Source: an uncultured Novosphingobium sp.
Lineage (GTDB): Bacteria; Pseudomonadota; Alphaproteobacteria; Sphingomonadales; Sphingomonadaceae
NCBI GenBank assembly: GCA_965140495.1
Contig: OZ223239.1
Location: 2,219,678-2,283,677 of the forward strand
DNA length: 64,000 bases
Direction: 5' to 3'
A program made the position numbers and the translations under genes. Positions 2,725-58,581 of this stretch are shown here, one piece after another. Numbering within the stretch: the stretch's first letter is position 1; every line of letters starts with the position of its first letter. The notes under the pieces were generated by a model. The model was not told the DNA's origin. It made no database searches and saw only the letters and a program-made list of their open reading frames with translations.

Positions 2725-3081
2725 ATGCTTCCTATGACGCAACGCGTTCTCTATGCGCCGATCAGAAGAGTTGTCCTTTTGTGCCTTTTGAGCAGCGGAT
2801 GCATGACGCCGGAAATATATCCTTCAAGTGAGGATGTATATTGGGATCAACCCCAAACAGGTTGGTATTGGGTTGGTGAAAGCGTTGAACCTGCTGCGAT
2901 TGCTAAAGCGGCAAATGAATGTGTTGCAAAAGTGGACGGCAGTGTAGTGAATCACGGGGTTGTGCCACCTGGCTTCTCTGCGAACGTTTTTCACTTTGTC
3001 GGCGACAACAGTCAGGCTGCTCGCGACTGTACAGTGGAGCGTCTAAGCGCTGTACCTCAGCTAACAATATATTCGCGATGA
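2725..3081 (+). CDS. hypothetical lipoprotein in an AT-rich islet
   Basis: Track ORF of 118 aa. LLCLLSSGC is a lipobox. No family recognised. Composition is visibly AT-richer than the flanks (by eye, not computed). Confidence 0.5.
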   Translation: MLPMTQRVLYAPIRRVVLLCLLSSGCMTPEIYPSSEDVYWDQPQTGWYWVGESVEPAAIAKAANECVAKVDGSVVNHGVVPPGFSANVFHFVGDNSQAARDCTVERLSAVPQLTIYSR

Positions 3082-5833: not shown

Positions 5834-6495
5834 ATGTCACCGAAGCGGTCCTGAACCGCCGTTCCATCCGCGCGTTCAAGGACGAGCCGGTCGATCCCGC
5901 TGTGCTGCGCCGCGTTTTCGAAGCCGCGCAGATGAGCCCCTCGGGCTGCAACTTCCAGCCGTGGGAAGGCGTGGTCCTGACCGGTGAGCCGGTGCGCGAG
6001 CTGTCGAGCCGCATCAAGGGCGCGGCGCCGCAGGACCCGCAGGAATACCAGCTTATCCCCAAGGATATTCCCGCGCGCTACACGCAGCGGCTGCAGGAAA
6101 TCACCGCGGCGCGGTTCGACGCCATCGGTCTCGCCCGCGACGATGCCGAGGGCCGTGGCCGCGTGCAGGCGCGCAACTTCGAGTTCTTCGGCGCGCCGGC
6201 GCTCCTGCTGTGCTTCGTGCCGCGCATCATGGGGCCACCGCAGTGGTCTGACGTCGGCATGTGGCTGCAGACGGTCATGCTCCTGCTCGAGGACGAAGGG
6301 CTGGGCAGCTGCCCGCAGGAATCGCTCTACGTCCATGGCCGGCTGATCAAGGACTTTGTTGGCGTCAGCGACGAGACGCATCTGTTCTTCTGCGGCATGG
6401 CCATCGGCCATCCCGACATGGACGATCCGATGAACCAGTTCGAGCGGACACGCGCGCCGCTGGACGAGGTGGTTCGCTTCGTCGGAGATACGTGA
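5830..6495 (+). CDS. nitroreductase family protein
   Basis: Track ORF of 221 aa. GTG start overlaps the cobT stop (GTGA). N-terminal LNRRSIRAF and overall layout are typical of the nitroreductase fold. It does not look like BluB. Confidence 0.8.
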
Positions 6496-7397
6496 CGCAC
6501 GGCTTGCTCTGGGTGCCGTTCACGCTGACGGCCGCCTTCGCGCAGGTTCTGCGCAATGCCGTGCAATCGCGCCTTACGGCCCGCATCGGCACGGTCGGCG
6601 GCACGCAGGTCCGCTTCGTTTACGGATTGCCGTTCGCCGCGATCCTGCTCGCGATCTATCTCGCTTTCGTTCCAAGTTCGATTCCGTCGATCCCGGCCGA
6701 GGCACTGGCCTGGTCGTTTGCAGGTTCCGTCACGCAGATCGTTGCCACGGCGCTGATGCTGGTGGTCATGGCCAAGCGCGATTTCGGCGTGGCCTATGCC
6801 TACATCAAGACCGAGCCGGTGACGGTGGCGGTGCTCGGTTTCGTGCTGATCGGGGATCGGCTGTCGTGGCTCGGCTGGGTGGCGGTGCTGATCGTGACCG
6901 TCGGTGTGGTCATGGCCTCGCTGCGCATGGGCGACAGTGCGGCCAAGCTCAGGGAATGGAAACCGCTGGTCGTCGGCGTTGCCAGCGGGGCGCTGTTCGG
7001 CCTGACCGCGATCTGCTTTCGCGCGTCGATCGATTTGGTGCCGCAAGGTGGCTTCATGCTTCGCAGCCTGACCATGCTGGTGGTCTCGCTGGCGATCCAG
7101 TCGGCGACGCTGGCGGTTTGGTTCGTGCTGAAGGACGCCTCCGGTTTCTTCGGCTCGGTGCGCGAATGGCGGTTGAGCGTGCTGGCGGGCGCGCTTGGCG
7201 CGCTGGCTTCGGCGGGATGGTTCATTTCCTTCTCGCTCACGCTGGCTGCCAACGTGCGCACGCTGGCACTGATCGAGATGCCGGTCGTCGCGGTGATGTC
7301 GCGGTACGTCTCCGGCCGCTGGCTGACGGCCCGCGAATGGTTCGGATTCGTGCTGATAACGCTCGGCGTCGCGGTCCTGATGGTCTCGCACGCTTGA
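6492..7397 (+). CDS. DMT superfamily (EamA-like) transporter
   Basis: Track ORF 6261..7397 trimmed to GTG 6492, which overlaps the upstream stop. About ten hydrophobic helices in two EamA-like halves. Confidence 0.7.
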   Translation: MTHGLLWVPFTLTAAFAQVLRNAVQSRLTARIGTVGGTQVRFVYGLPFAAILLAIYLAFVPSSIPSIPAEALAWSFAGSVTQIVATALMLVVMAKRDFGVAYAYIKTEPVTVAVLGFVLIGDRLSWLGWVAVLIVTVGVVMASLRMGDSAAKLREWKPLVVGVASGALFGLTAICFRASIDLVPQGGFMLRSLTMLVVSLAIQSATLAVWFVLKDASGFFGSVREWRLSVLAGALGALASAGWFISFSLTLAANVRTLALIEMPVVAVMSRYVSGRWLTAREWFGFVLITLGVAVLMVSHA

Positions 7398-51614: not shown

Positions 51615-52379
51615 ATGGCTGTTCTGCATTCCGCACCGAAGTATGCGTCGAACGAAGGCGTCATCGACACGCTGACCGGCGCGCTCGGCCCCATGCTGCT
51701 TGCCGCGAGGGAAGAGCATGGCGAAATCGTCCTCACCATCGTGCGCGACCGGATCGAGGACGCGCTGCGTCTGCTGCGTGACGAGCACGGCTACCAGCAG
51801 CTCATGGAAATGGCCGGCGTCGACTATCCGTCGCGGCCCGAGCGCTTCGAAGTCGTCTACATGCTGCTCTCGCTGACGAAGAACCATCGCCTGCTGGTGA
51901 AGGTGAACGCGTCGGAAAGCACGCCGGTGCCGACCGCGACCACGCTGTGGCACAACGCGGGCTGGCTCGAGCGTGAAGTGTTCGACATGTACGGCGTGAT
52001 CTTCTCGGGCAATCCGGACCTGCGCCGCATCCTCACCGACTACGGTTTCGAGGGGCACCCGCAGCGCAAGGACTTCCCGCTGACCGGCTATCAGGAACTG
52101 CGCTATTCCGAAGAGGACAAGCGCGTCGTTTACGAGCCGGTACAGCTTGCCCAGGATTTCCGCAGTTTCGACTTCATGAGCCCTTGGGAAGGCGCCGACT
52201 ACGTGCTTCCGGGTGATGAGAAGGCCGCCGAACAGCCCGCGCCGCCGCCGGTCGAAAAGCCCAAGACCACTGAAAAGAAGGGTGACAGCGGCGCCGGCGA
52301 ACCGACCGACGGCAAGGCCGAGGAAAAGGTTTCCGCTCCGGCGCCCGATCAGAAGGATTCCAAGGAGGACGGCAAATGA
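51615..52379 (+). CDS. nuoC: NADH-quinone oxidoreductase subunit C (with Lys/Glu/Pro-rich C-terminal tail)
   Basis: Track ORF of 254 aa. ERE(V/I)FDM motif ([14 protein letters not shown]). Confidence 0.92.
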
Positions 52380-53784: not shown

Positions 53785-54445
53785 CCGCTATATCGAACCC
53801 GATACGCCCGAACTGCGGGCGCGTTGGGGCAATTTTGCCTGGACCGACGAGAACGCCGCCAAGGCGAAGGACATCGTCGCGCGCTATCCCGAAGGGCGTC
53901 AGCGCTCTGCGGTGATGCCGCTGCTCGACCTTGCCCAGCGCCAGGTCGGCGCGGAGCTGAACACGCAAGGCTGGCTGCCGATCCCGGTGATGGAATATGT
54001 CGCGGACTACCTCGACATGCCGATCATCCGCGTGGTCGAGGTCGCGACCTTCTACACGATGTACAACGTCGCCCCGATCGGCCGTTTCCACGTGCAGGTC
54101 TGCGGCACGACGCCGTGCATGCTGCGCGGTTCGGACGACATCATCGAAGCCTGCAAGAAGCGCGGGATGAAGAAGGGCCACACGACCGAGGACGGCCTCT
54201 GGTCGTTCACCGAAGTGGAATGCATGGGCAACTGTGCATCGGCGCCGATGGTGCAGATCAACGACGACAACTACGAGGACCTCACCCCGGAGCGCCTCGA
54301 TGTCGTGCTCGATGCCCTGGCCAAGGGTGAGACGCCCAAGGCCGGCACGCAGGAGCCGGGCCGTCACACCGTCGAGCCTTCGGGCGGACCGACCACGCTC
54401 ACCGCGATGGTCACCGAAAATCACGATTACCGGGGGGAGTGGTGA
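53777..54445 (+). CDS. nuoE: NADH-quinone oxidoreductase subunit E
   Basis: Track ORF of 222 aa. 2Fe-2S ligand contexts VCGTTPC and ECMGNCASAP. Confidence 0.95.
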   Translation: MADRYIEPDTPELRARWGNFAWTDENAAKAKDIVARYPEGRQRSAVMPLLDLAQRQVGAELNTQGWLPIPVMEYVADYLDMPIIRVVEVATFYTMYNVAPIGRFHVQVCGTTPCMLRGSDDIIEACKKRGMKKGHTTEDGLWSFTEVECMGNCASAPMVQINDDNYEDLTPERLDVVLDALAKGETPKAGTQEPGRHTVEPSGGPTTLTAMVTENHDYRGEW

Positions 54446-54675
54446 TGGGTCTTAGGTCTCTCCTCTCCAATCCGAATGGCGGTCAGATGTTGAGTGGCTA
54501 TGTGCTGCTCGTTTCGGCGCTGGTCTTGGCGTTAGTCATCGTAGGAAATTTGGCTTTCAAGGTGGTCAATGGCTCGCCCATAGAGCTGAATCGTGATGGG
54601 CTTGGCCTGATTGTCATGTTGGCCGTCAGTATTCCCGCCCTTCTGAAATTTGTGAGGTCGCGACATGCTCGCTGA
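54445..54675 (+). CDS. small two-TM membrane protein between nuoE and nuoF (AT-rich)
   Basis: Track ORF 54439..54675. ATG 54445 shares one nt with the nuoE stop (TGATG). Its stop overlaps the nuoF start. Rare codons and visibly lower GC than flanks. Confidence 0.45.
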
Positions 54676-55972
54676 CAAGGATCGCATCTTCACCAACGTC
54701 TACGGCTACCAGTCGTGGCACCTGAAGGATGCGCAGGCGCGCGGCGCCTGGGACAAAACCAAGGATATCCTTGCCAAGGGCAAGGAAGCCATCATCGAGG
54801 AAATCAAGGCCTCGGGCCTGCGCGGCCGTGGCGGCGCGGGCTTCCCCACCGGCATGAAGTGGTCCTTCATGCCCAAGGAACCGCCCAAGGATCACAACGG
54901 CAATCCCAAGCCGAGCTTCCTCGTCATCAACGCCGACGAATCCGAGCCGGGCTCGTGCAAGGACCGCGAGATCATCCGCCACGATCCGCACATCCTGCTC
55001 GAAGGCGCGCTGGTTGCCGGTTTCGCGATGGGCGCGCGGGCGGCTTACATCTACATTCGCGGCGAATACATCCGCGAGGCCGAGACGCTCTTCGCCGCGC
55101 GCGATGAGGCTTACGCCGCGGGCCTGCTGGGCAAGAACGCCTGCGGTTCGGGCTACGACTTCGATGTCTTCGTCCATCGCGGCGCAGGCGCCTACATCTG
55201 CGGCGAAGAAACCGCGATGATCGAGAGCCTCGAAGGCAAGAAGGGCCAGCCCCGCCTCAAGCCGCCGTTCCCGGCCGGCGCGGGCCTCTATGGCTGCCCG
55301 ACCACGGTCAACAACGTCGAATCGATTGCCGTTGCGCCCACCATCATGCGGCGCGGTGCGGCGTGGTTCTCCAGTTTCGGCCGCGAGAACAACAAGGGTG
55401 TGAAGCTCTTCCAGGTCTCCGGCCACGTGAACAAGCCGTGCGTCGTGGAAGAGGAAATGGGCATTCCCTTCAGCGAACTGATCGAAAAGCACTGCGGCGG
55501 CATCCGTGGCGGCAAGGACAACCTGCTGGCGGTGATCCCCGGCGGTTCCTCGGTCCCGCTGGTGCCCGCAGAGCAGATCTGGGACGCGCCGATGGACTTC
55601 GACGGCCTCAAGGCGCTGGGCTCCGGCCTCGGCACCGCCGCCGTCATCGTCATGGACAAGTCCACCGACATCGTTCGCGCCATTTCGCGCCTGTCCTACT
55701 TCTACAAGCACGAGAGCTGCGGCCAGTGCACGCCGTGCCGTGAAGGTACGGGCTGGATGTGGCGCGTGATGGAGCGCCTGCGCACCGGCGAGGCGGCGGT
55801 CGAGGAAATCGACATGCTGCAGCAGGTCACCAAGCAGGTCGAAGGCCACACCATCTGCGCGCTGGGCGACGCTGCCGCCTGGCCGATCCAGGGCCTCATC
55901 CGCCACTTCCGTCCCGAGATCGAGCGCCGCATCGAAGAGCGTCTCGCGAACACAGCGGTGGCAGCGGAATGA
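54665..55972 (+). CDS. nuoF: NADH-quinone oxidoreductase subunit F
   Basis: Track ORF of 435 aa. [10 protein letters not shown] and [12 protein letters not shown]. Confidence 0.95.
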
Positions 55973-56553
55973 CGGCCGCTTGGTTCATAGACGGCGCATA
56001 TGCGTTGAAGAGCTGGAACGCAGCAGCTCCGAAGGGGTCGCGCTTGGATTTCGCTAAGCTTCGACAGCATATTGAGGCTGACGCTGGCGACACAATTGGC
56101 GACGCCTACTATTTCAGTTGTGACAACGATCCTCCTTCGGCTGCCCAAAGTGGTTTTCATAGAGCCATTGCTAGCCCTCCTCCTAGAGGAGCCGGCCTTC
56201 GGTTGAAGCTATATTGGCTTTCACATAAACCGTTGTTCTGGCCGCAGCAGTATGGTGGCGGCCCGGTAATGCATCCGACGACACCTGATTTACAGTATGA
56301 GTTGACCACTCAAAAAGGTGTCGATGTAGGTCTCGCATTTCACATGATGCGGTCATACTCAAAGCTTGGATGGAAAAAGCTTTATCTCGTTGCAGGAGAC
56401 GGCGATTTTCATGAGGTTGTTCAGCATCTTGTGGAAGATGAGAATGTGACGGTTTGTCTAATCGGAACTCATAATTCCATAAGCCCAGAATTGGGCCCCT
56501 ATGCCTCGAAAACAATGATGTTCGAGGACATCGCAGCACAAGTAACGCTTTAG
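55969..56553 (+). CDS. NYN / LabA-like domain protein (predicted PIN-like RNase) inserted between nuoF and nuoG
   Basis: Part of track ORF 55759..56553. ATG 55969 overlaps the nuoF stop (ATGA), and the gene ends 9 bp before nuoG. N-terminal [17 protein letters not shown] and [15 protein letters not shown]...VTVCLIG match LabA/NYN signatures. Visibly AT-richer than the operon. Confidence 0.72.
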
Positions 56554-56562
56554 GATCGATTC

Positions 56563-58581
56563 ATGCCAAGAGTCACCGTAGACGGACAGGAACTCGACGT
56601 CCCCAACGGCGCAACCGTGCTGCAGGCCTGCGAACTGGCCGGCAAGGAAATCCCGCGCTTCTGCTATCACGAGCGGCTGTCGATTGCCGGCAACTGCCGT
56701 ATGTGTCTGGTCGAGGTGAAGCCCGGACCGCCCAAGCCGCAGGCCTCCTGCGCGCTTCCGGCGACCGAAGGCCAGGAAATCCGCACCGACAGCGAAATGG
56801 TCAAGAAGGCCCGCGAAGGGGTGATGGAGTTCCTGCTCATCAACCACCCGCTCGACTGCCCGATCTGCGATCAGGGCGGCGAGTGCGACCTGCAGGATCA
56901 GTCGGTGGCCTATGGCCGCGGCGGCTCGCGCTATCACGAGAACAAGCGCGCGGTGACCGAGAAGTACATGGGCCCGCTCATCAAGACGACGATGACGCGC
57001 TGCATCCACTGCACCCGCTGCGTGCGTTTCTCGGAAGAGATCGCCGGCGTGGACGAAATCGGCGCGCTCTATCGCGGCGAGAACATGCAGATCACCACGT
57101 ATCTGGAACATGCCGCCAAGCATGAGATGTCGGCCAACGTGATCGACCTCTGCCCGGTCGGCGCGCTGACCTCGCGGCCCTATGCCTACGAGGCGCGGCC
57201 GTGGGAGCTGAAGAAGACGCTCGGCATCGACGTGTCCGACGCGATCGGCTCGAACATCCGCATCGACAGCCGCGGCCGCGAAGTGCTGCGCGTCCTCCCG
57301 CGCGTTAACGACGACGTCAACGAGGAGTGGATCAGCGACAAGGCGCGCTATATGGTCGACGGCCTTGTGAAGCGCCGCCTCGACAAGCCGTACCTGCGCC
57401 GCGACGGCAAGCTGGTGGCCGCGACCTGGAACGAGGCGTTCGAGGCCATCGCGACGCTCAATCCCGGCAAGTCCATTGCCGCCGTCGCCGGTGACATGCT
57501 CGACTGCGAAACGATGTTCGCGGCCAAGAAGCTGGTCGGCGCGCTCGGTTCGGAGCTGCTTGAAGGTCGCCAGACCGGCATGGACTACGACACGTCGAGC
57601 CTTGCGGCGGTGAACTTCAACACCACGCTAAACGGCATCGAGAGCGCCGACGCGATTCTGATCGTCGGCAGCAACGTGCGCAGCGAAGCGCCGCTGGTGA
57701 ACGTCCGCCTGCGCAAGGCAGTGAAGCGCGGCGCCAAGGTCTTCCTGATCGGGCCCGAGTGGGACACCACCTTCGGCGGCGAGTTCCTCGGCGACGATCT
57801 TTCGGTCATCGGCGATCTGCCGAACCACGTGTGGGAAACGATCCGCGATGCCAAGCGCCCGGCGATCATCGTCGGCGGGGCAGGGCTGGGCCGTGGCGGT
57901 CTCGAGGCCGCGCTTTCGGTCGGCGAGCAGATCGGCATCGTGCGCGAGCTGGAAGACGGCACCAAGTGGAACGGCTTCAACGTCCTGCACATGGCAGCAA
58001 GCCGCATGGGCGGTCTGATGCTCGGCTATGCGCAGAAGGGCGGCCTGGCGGATATCGTCGCGGCCAAGCCCAAGGTGCTGCTCTCGCTCGGCGCCGACGA
58101 AGTGGACTACACCAAGTTCGCCGACTCGATGATCGTCTACATCGGTCATCACGGCGACAAGGGCGCCCATGCCGCCGACGTGATCCTCCCGGCCTCGGCC
58201 TACACCGAGAAGGCGGGCACTTACGTCAACACCGAAGGCCGCGTGCAACTGTCCGACAAGGCGGTGTTCGCGCCCGGTGACGCGCGCGAGGACTGGACGA
58301 TCCTGCGCGCTCTCGCCGATGCCTTCGGCGTCGAGCTGGGCTTCGACAGCTTCGAGGAATTGCGCGCTGCGATGATTTCCGAGGTTCCGGCCCTTGGCAG
58401 CGAAGGCCTGGCGGACTACGGGAGCGAGCTGCCTGCCGGCGGCGGTTCCGCATCCGGCCAGATCGCCTACCCGGTCAAGGACTTCTACATGACCAATCCC
58501 ATCGCTCGCGCCAGTGCGACCATGCAGCGCTGCTCGGCAGAACTGCTGCACGGCGAGGAGATTGCGGAGGCTGCGGAATAA
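56563..58581 (+). CDS. nuoG: NADH-quinone oxidoreductase subunit G
   Basis: Track ORF of 672 aa. [17 protein letters not shown] and [18 protein letters not shown]. Confidence 0.95.

Follow-up and report, generated by a model that had tools for sequence, protein, structure and literature searches.

An additional gene between nuoF and nuoG

The DNA analysed here is a stretch of 64,000 nucleotides (the window) from an uncultured Novosphingobium sp. (assembly GCA_965140495.1, contig OZ223239.1, positions 2,219,678 to 2,283,677 of the forward strand), and the subject of this work is a 194-codon open reading frame (ORF) that lies within its complex I (nuo) operon, between nuoF and nuoG, and encodes a protein with a NYN domain. 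A preliminary description had the ORF starting with an ATGA on the nuoF stop codon and ending 9 bp before nuoG. Both ends match the sequence, with a 9-nt spacer (56554-56562) between the NYN stop codon and the nuoG ATG. The gene 5' of nuoF was identified with Pfam as nuoE. The features of the locus are as follows.

54665-55972, forward strand: nuoF, 435 amino acids, the 5' neighbouring cistron (Pfam Complex1_51K, SLBB, NADH_4Fe-4S).
55969-55972, forward strand: ATGA overlap of the nuoF stop and the NYN start, read from the sequence, a putative translational-coupling junction (ATG 55969-55971, TGA 55970-55972).
55969-56553, forward strand: NYN gene, a LabA/COG1432-like predicted endoribonuclease, 194 codons plus TAG (PF01936, homologues, AlphaFold2 model and Foldseek, composition).
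55973-56562, forward strand: variable segment (blastn against contig L162, empty slots of relatives).
55990-55992, forward strand: codon of D8, the first conserved acidic residue, in FIDGAY of strand 1, invariant in the subfamily alignment described below.
56116-56313, forward strand: subfamily-specific insertion, approximately residues 50-115 (alignment and AlphaFold2 model).
56323-56325, forward strand: codon of D119, in the KGVDVGL motif, invariant in the alignment.
56398-56406, forward strand: codons of D144-G145-D146, in the AGDGDF motif, the aligned counterpart of SGDGDF in 2qip; both aspartates are invariant in the alignment.
56552-56562, forward strand: AGGA (56552-56555) and a 7-nt spacer before the nuoG ATG, from the sequence; the AGGA overlaps the NYN stop codon.
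56563-58581, forward strand: nuoG, 672 amino acids, the 3' neighbouring cistron (Pfam Fer2_4, NADH-G_4Fe-4S_3, Fer4_Nqo3, Molybdopterin, NADH_dhqG_C).

It can be seen that the NYN gene has no space for a promoter or terminator of its own. A 4-kb region held one promoter-like and two terminator-like sites, where 0.7 and 2.6, respectively, are expected by chance, and no Rfam family reached its gathering score anywhere in the window. The ATGA overlap on the nuoF stop is also found in two other contigs described below, L173, where it starts a NYN gene, and L162, where it belongs to an alternative ORF.

The product is a predicted NYN-family endoribonuclease

The preliminary description had proposed a LabA/NYN-type RNase on the basis of signature motifs. 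All of these motifs are present in the translation of the ORF, and a profile search bore the assignment out: the Pfam NYN family (PF01936) matches residues 6-175 with a score of 36.6 bits (gathering score 24.2, E = 8e-9), over profile positions 5-134 of 145. A search of 5.8 billion proteins recovered 283 homologues of the product; among the matches listed PF01936 is present in 120 of 120 homologues, and the best match is 70% identical. The subfamily is small, amounting to 34, 175 and 623 clusters at 50% identity for E <= 1e-30, 1e-10 and 1e-3, respectively, in a set of 1.84 billion representatives.

The NYN active site is defined by four conserved acidic residues that are predicted ligands of the catalytic metal (PMC5499597). 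Alignment of the window protein with other, diverse members of its subfamily (20 sequences in all) shows D8, D119, D144 and D146 to be invariant. Also invariant in this alignment are ten positions of an insertion of about 60 residues (R78, K80, Y82, W83, W91, P92, G96, G97, H102 and P103). An AlphaFold2 model of the product (predicted local distance difference test score 85.1, predicted template modelling score 0.71) has low confidence over residues 50-79, and residues 80-119 form a confidently predicted beta-hairpin.

When the model was compared with the PDB using Foldseek, the only matches at E <= 1e-3 were 2qip (E = 2.3e-6, probability 1.00) and the MARF1 NYN chains of 5yaa. All matches at E <= 0.004 are NYN domains (2qip, 5yaa, 6fdl), and the remainder have template modelling (TM) scores below 0.3. 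The structure 2qip is that of VPA0982 of Vibrio parahaemolyticus, which belongs with LabA of Synechococcus elongatus to the LabA-like (COG1432) NYN proteins, a large family whose function is mostly unknown (PMC5499597). The window protein shares with these proteins PF01936, the D...D...DxD set and the GDGDF motif, and like VPA0982 it consists of a single domain, comes from a bacterium and has no substrate assigned to it (PMC5499597). It differs from 2qip in being only 16% identical and in having the 60-residue insertion, which is missing from the solved NYN domains of 150-165 residues, and from LabA-like proteins in general in forming a small separate subfamily and in lying inside a respiratory operon.

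The MARF1 NYN domain is the second-best structural match (5yaa and 6fdl, E = 2e-4 to 4e-3, TM scores of 0.62-0.69 normalised to the target). MARF1 differs from the window protein in being a eukaryotic multi-domain protein (NYN, RRM and OST-HTH) with 11-13% identity and no operon context. Because ribonuclease activity has been reported for this PF01936-type domain (PMC6217404), we propose the same chemistry for the window protein: D8, D119, D144 and D146 would bind Mg2+ and hydrolyse single-stranded RNA, as in the MARF1 NYN domain, and the conserved insertion, a putative RNA-binding element, would probably add RNA binding. The product is thus predicted to be a single-domain, PIN-like, metal-dependent (Mg2+) endoribonuclease.

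A lipid-kinase reading of the GDGDFHEVV stretch was considered and rejected. PF00781 scored 20.7 bits against a cut-off of 23.6 and TIGR00147 15.7 against 118.65; matches to sphingosine kinases in the PDB had E values of about 0.5 and were confined to the GDGxxHEVV stretch, and kinases were absent from the significant structural matches.

Selection was assessed in two related loci, L083 and L084, that carry the gene at the same junction. Between them, the NYN gene shows 15 synonymous and no non-synonymous differences, compared with 34 and 3 for nuoF and 67 and 11 for nuoG, which is the pattern of purifying selection. We conclude that the NYN ORF is an intact, real gene.

The nuoF-nuoG junction varies between near-identical strains

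The NuoF protein of the window shares 97% identity with its counterpart in Novosphingobium indicum and 96% with the one in N. mangrovi, and contigs of relatives were retrieved via their NuoF proteins. Two metagenome contigs, L162 and L163, share 97.7% DNA identity with the window across nuoA-F and nuoG-J. The blastn homology between the window and L162 breaks at 55975 and restarts at the nuoG ATG (56563), and in between L162 and L163 have 361 bp that are unrelated to NYN and encode an orphan ORF. In L162 (5305-5673) this ORF has 122 amino acids and a lipoprotein-like signal peptide (…LVLPSVALAC…); its start may be the ATGA on the nuoF stop, as for NYN, and its end overlaps nuoG as TGATG. It has no Pfam match, and no homologue beyond its own entry among the 5.8 billion proteins.

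In N. indicum, N. mangrovi and six marine Novosphingobium contigs, which have 90-97% DNA identity to the window in these nuo genes, the slot is empty and nuoF and nuoG overlap as TAATG. Homology between the window and the N. indicum group ends at 55946, before the 3' end of nuoF: the last 26 nt of nuoF encode a variable tail (ANTAVAAE) that is common to the window, L162 and L163 and different in N. indicum. The NYN gene was found in no sampled relative at 90-98% flank identity. The earlier suggestion that this junction tolerates insertions therefore holds when junctions are compared, the slot being empty or occupied by an orphan in genomes that are 95-98% identical in the flanks. We conclude that the nuoF-nuoG slot is strain-variable in this species complex, where it is empty, holds an orphan ORF or holds NYN. 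Near-identical strains lack the NYN gene, and therefore complex I does not need it.

Repeats around 55800-56750 are short and at chance level, with none bracketing the insert and no convincing target-site duplication, and there is no integrase, recombinase or insertion sequence (IS) element near the insert. The missing bracketing repeats and the missing recombinase speak against an integron- or transposon-type cassette. The spacer CGATTCATG is similar to CGAATAATG of the empty site, a resemblance too short for interpretation.

Distribution of the NYN subfamily

A scan of GTDB, in which 185,579 species were each represented by a single genome, was used to retain the 80 best loci. Only one of these, L002 from an uncultured Sphingomonadaceae metagenome-assembled genome, has the gene between nuoF and nuoG. 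The others are stand-alone genes in the Pseudomonas oryzihabitans group, Polyangiaceae, Acidobacteriaceae, Chitinimonas, Caldilineaceae and other taxa; Paracoccus and Rhodobacter are absent from the 80. In L002 nuoG (966-2862) is represented by two ORFs that overlap (966-2618 and 1987-2862), probably because of a frameshift through assembly error.

Metagenome scans and contig look-ups added further loci: L083-85 with L179-180, which form one lineage, L172, L173 (a 2.18-Mb contig) and L174. In the window, L002, L083-85, L173, L174 and L179-180 the NYN gene is flanked by nuoF and nuoG, with all three genes on one strand. In L172 nuoF is upstream of NYN and the nuoG side is beyond the end of the contig. 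All close NYN relatives with readable context are thus at the nuoF/nuoG junction, in six lineages including that of the window. A 578-aa 'nuoF' (P0123), suspected of being a nuoF-NYN fusion, proved to be a chimeric duplication of the nuoF N-terminus.

In a neighbour-joining tree of 261 sequences the nuo-embedded copies and the window copy form one 13-member clade, with a bootstrap value of about 60%. The closest relative of the window copy is that of L172 (70% identity), and the two are sisters with 96% bootstrap, while the other confirmed nuo-embedded copies group together in 89% of replicates. Pairwise identities are 60-74% for the nuo-embedded NYN proteins and 67-80% for NuoG of the same hosts, with similar grouping, and NuoF is about 86% identical among these hosts.

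One explanation for this placement is that the NYN protein is a dedicated processing or stability factor for nuo mRNA, which would be made from the nuo transcript and cleave it, perhaps near the nuoF/nuoG boundary, and so set the ratio of the N-module to the membrane arm, or tune complex I expression. Such a role would fit the finding that, in six lineages whose nuo genes have diverged, all group members with readable context occupy one junction, as well as the purifying selection on the gene at that junction and the loose co-variation of NYN and nuoG pairwise identities. By analogy, it may also draw on NYN-domain proteins that reportedly act in plant mitochondrial transcript maturation (Stoll and Binder 2016, as cited in PMC5499597). 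However, an empty slot or an orphan ORF suffices in genomes 95-98% identical in the flanks, and only one of the 80 best loci among the GTDB species representatives has the gene at the junction. Moreover, the subfamily is stand-alone, with no link to nuo, in Pseudomonas, Polyangiaceae and Acidobacteriaceae, and the window copy is compositionally un-ameliorated (see below). On balance we regard a dedicated mRNA factor as unlikely.

Outside the nuo group, the closest relative with readable context is P0013 (L177 1-9237/L178), which is 64% identical in a tblastn alignment. It lies in an island that also carries transposase genes of the IS5 and IS3 types, a gene for a metallophosphatase and genes resembling the antitoxins MazE and Xre_MbcA_ParS_C. 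This setting, together with the patchy distribution of the subfamily across phyla, would suit a defence- or toxin-type nuclease (abortive infection or toxin-like) that came from the mobile gene pool and was parked in the nuo operon. The PADLOC profile PDLC01154 also gives a weak match (E = 2e-5), which aligns residues 117-192 with profile positions 230-302; it thus covers 73 of the 310 positions, in the C-terminal quarter only, and is not full-length.

Several results argue against such a function. In profile searches the window protein matched no toxin-antitoxin family, and no antitoxin, sensor or partner gene is adjacent here or recurrent in 160 loci examined by neighbour clustering, which recovered lineage synteny only (Polyangiaceae loci share a hybrid histidine kinase, Pseudomonas loci a beta-lactamase-family gene and Acidobacteriaceae loci ThiC). 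A gene expressed constitutively together with a housekeeping operon is a poor candidate for a toxic effector, and tblastn found no subfamily member in 72,556 plasmid or 50,697 phage records. We therefore consider a defence role quite improbable. Two IMG/VR contigs classed as viral, L175 and L176, carry subfamily members that are 56-57% identical; one of these is near a contig edge, and that of L176 is apparently frameshifted.

The NYN gene has retained a foreign base composition

The ORF had been described by eye as AT-rich relative to the operon, and computation agrees with that impression. In 300-nt windows the GC content falls to 0.46-0.54 over the ORF from about 0.65 on either side. The NYN ORF has a GC content of 0.50, a GC content at third codon positions (GC3) of 0.487 and a codon adaptation index (CAI) of 0.19, compared with GC3 values of 0.867 for nuoF and 0.866 for nuoG and CAI values of 0.70-0.80 for nuoD, E, F, G, H and L, a range that includes nuoL although it was outside the CAI reference set. 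A foreign origin had also been proposed, and it is supported by this atypical composition together with the absence of the gene from the closest relatives.

Across 135 subfamily loci the GC content of NYN follows that of the flanks (r = 0.82) and is lower by 0.054 on average. The deficit of 0.15 in the window is among the largest of these loci. Copies in Pseudomonas and Polyangiaceae are ameliorated (GC3 0.75-0.87). Among nuo-embedded copies, those in high-GC hosts have GC3 values of 0.56-0.67 against host values of 0.86-0.97, the window copy being the most extreme, and in all high-GC hosts NYN is 0.2-0.4 under the host GC3. In the lower-GC hosts L172 and L173, by contrast, NYN (0.55-0.59) equals the host nuo genes (0.56-0.60).

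Other ORFs at nuo junctions, described below, allow the same comparison. GC3 is host-like in the genus-wide URF66 (0.82) and in a SnoaL gene (0.84), and it is not host-like in NYN (0.49), the 78-aa ORF URF78 (0.62), the L162 orphan (0.63) and a glyoxalase-family gene (0.67). Composition thus distinguishes old occupants of the junctions from new ones.

These data bear on whether NYN could be an ancient, vertically inherited resident of the slot in the ancestor of Sphingomonadales, lost many times and retained in the window. The divergence of nuo-embedded NYN proteins is indeed close to that of NuoG, with similar grouping, and NYN co-diverges with its flanks within the L083-85 lineage. Against this, the window copy remains at a GC3 of 0.49 in a host whose genus-wide junction ORFs are now at 0.82-0.84, no sampled relative with flanks 90-98% identical has the gene, and copies in high-GC hosts have stayed well under host GC3 while those of Pseudomonas and Polyangiaceae have been ameliorated. 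An ancient resident is accordingly highly improbable.

Origin, expression and role of the NYN gene

Taken together, we think it probable that the NYN gene is a dispensable passenger RNase on a strongly expressed operon, and that it is neither part of complex I nor a regulator dedicated to it. It is an accessory gene that appears to have arrived recently. The most likely donor would be a lower-GC relative that already had NYN at the nuoF/nuoG junction, because in L172 and L173 the GC3 of NYN equals that of the host, and L172 holds the closest relative. Replacement recombination would then have used the conserved nuoF and nuoG genes as homology arms, and this would be the simplest account of the same landing site.

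Once in place, the gene would be transcribed solely within the nuo polycistron by read-through, with no promoter of its own, and its translation would rely on termination-reinitiation where its ATG overlaps the nuoF stop. The level of NYN protein is expected to be low because codon adaptation is poor. The 3' end of the gene would bring the AGGA ribosome-binding site that keeps nuoG translated.

A number of observations weigh against a recent passenger, or against this route. No donor tract is discernible in the flanks, which is why the recombination route is only inferred, and on the nuoF side the density of mismatches to L162 is not raised; the first 72 nt of nuoG hold a small cluster of mismatches, a mosaic of local alleles. 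The 13-member nuo-embedded clade has a neighbour-joining bootstrap of about 60%, and there may have been two captures at the junction instead of one. The loose co-variation of NYN and nuoG identities fits long co-residence too. The NYN product is also missing from the protein collection, with four alternative starts tried, while nuoE, nuoF and nuoG products identical to those of the window are present from one 4.05-Mb contig; this missing record is probably a matter of gene calling and is otherwise unexplained. Finally, NuoG differs by about 30% among hosts that all keep NYN strictly at one junction, and a functional tie with the nuo transcript, instead of mere hitch-hiking, could be the reason.

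Such a tie can be put in a specific form, in which a NYN lineage has specialised to the nuoF/nuoG boundary of Sphingomonadales. The protein would cleave its own nuo mRNA within or close to its own coding region, uncouple expression of nuoE and nuoF, for the NADH-oxidising module, from that of nuoG and the membrane-arm genes, and spread from species to species via the nuoF and nuoG homology arms. We consider this distinctly unlikely, and prefer the dispensable passenger.

Other junctions of the nuo operon

The nuoF-nuoG slot is not the only one with variable occupants. The additional junction ORFs with listed coordinates are the following.

54439-54675, forward strand: 78-aa membrane-like ORF (URF78) at the nuoE/nuoF junction of the window, GC3 0.62, CAI 0.22.
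L171 1789-2139 and L174 3006-3374: SnoaL_2-family genes at the nuoD/nuoE junction, GC3 0.84, host-like.

The nuoE/nuoF slot shows the same phenomenon as the nuoF/nuoG slot. It is occupied by the 78-aa ORF in the window, which has no Pfam or NCBIfam match, by an ORF of 76 aa as called in L162 and L163, and by an unrelated 44-aa ORF in the N. indicum group, where the flanks are 95-97% identical; the homology break between the window and that group spans 54447-54674. At nuoB/nuoC, L163 has a glyoxalase-family gene (610-1014, GC3 0.67), and at nuoD/nuoE a SnoaL-like gene is present in N. mangrovi and L174. At nuoG/nuoH the window has a direct overlap of the two genes (58581), and the N. indicum group has some 90 additional bases, called as a 32-aa ORF (L164-L170, 6326-6424).

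Within a coding region of the operon, NuoC has 254 aa in the window (51615-52379) and 290 aa in L162 (843-1715), with an indel in its Lys/Glu/Pro-rich C-terminal tail.

Relation to known systems

URF2 of Paracoccus lies at the nqo1/nqo3 junction, and extra ORFs (URFs) in the Paracoccus denitrificans nqo cluster were reportedly described by Xu, Matsuno-Yagi and Yagi in 1993. The complex I cluster of Rhodobacter capsulatus likewise has URFs among its canonical genes (PMC4758237), and the window resembles these alphaproteobacterial clusters in having extra ORFs between canonical complex I genes. R. capsulatus urf7 differs in being a predicted S-adenosylmethionine-dependent methyltransferase (PMC9036352) and not NYN. 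Turnover of occupants between near-identical strains, as seen in Novosphingobium, was not found described for the Paracoccus and Rhodobacter clusters in the literature searched, and our literature search found no paper linking a NYN domain with nuoF or nuoG.

Chromosomal integration hot spots are similar in that alternative occupants lie between the same two conserved core genes. They differ from the slot described here, which is inside an operon, between translationally coupled cistrons, and takes a single ORF with start- and stop-codon precision and with no integrase, IS element or repeat. VapC-type PIN toxins share with the window protein the PIN-like nuclease superfamily, small size, a single domain and membership of the accessory genome. 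In contrast to these toxins the window protein belongs to the NYN structural group, and its neighbours are nuoF and nuoG instead of an antitoxin, with lineage-dependent neighbours elsewhere.

URFs in complex I clusters and LabA-like NYN proteins are thus already known kinds of element. What is new, modestly, is the ORF-precise polymorphism of the operon junctions between near-identical strains, and a NYN group that keeps to one junction. Complex I operons are usually viewed as fixed, tightly coupled units, yet the junctions nuoB/C, nuoD/E, nuoE/F, nuoF/G and nuoG/H act as single-ORF exchange points even at 97.7% DNA identity. The inserts are trimmed to start- and stop-codon precision, and the coupling of the essential genes is therefore kept. 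The empty slot, the orphan ORF and NYN constitute a natural three-allele series for the effects of insertions on coupling and subunit stoichiometry. Bacterial NYN/LabA-like proteins are mostly without a known target, and the junction-tied group offers a small, tractable member with an obvious candidate substrate in nuo mRNA. If the gene is only a passenger, it would be a clean case of an accessory gene exploiting the expression signals of a housekeeping operon; if it targets its own transcript, it would be an operon-resident RNA-processing cassette.

Additional observations

Two other nuo-embedded loci show repeats at this junction. L172 has a 68-nt AT-rich spacer between nuoF and NYN (1006-1072) with three tandem ATGAGCAATAAAAAT units, and in L173 (approximately 5950-6004 and 6594-6670) the tail of NuoF contains PSQVM peptide repeats and the N-terminus of NuoG contains TLKPK repeats. 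The gene ends at the nuoF/nuoG junction seem prone to repeat expansion.

Elsewhere in the window, where GC is 0.64 overall, a 117-aa ORF at 2725-3078 has a GC content of 0.50, a GC3 of 0.42 and no Pfam match, and is a further candidate foreign gene.

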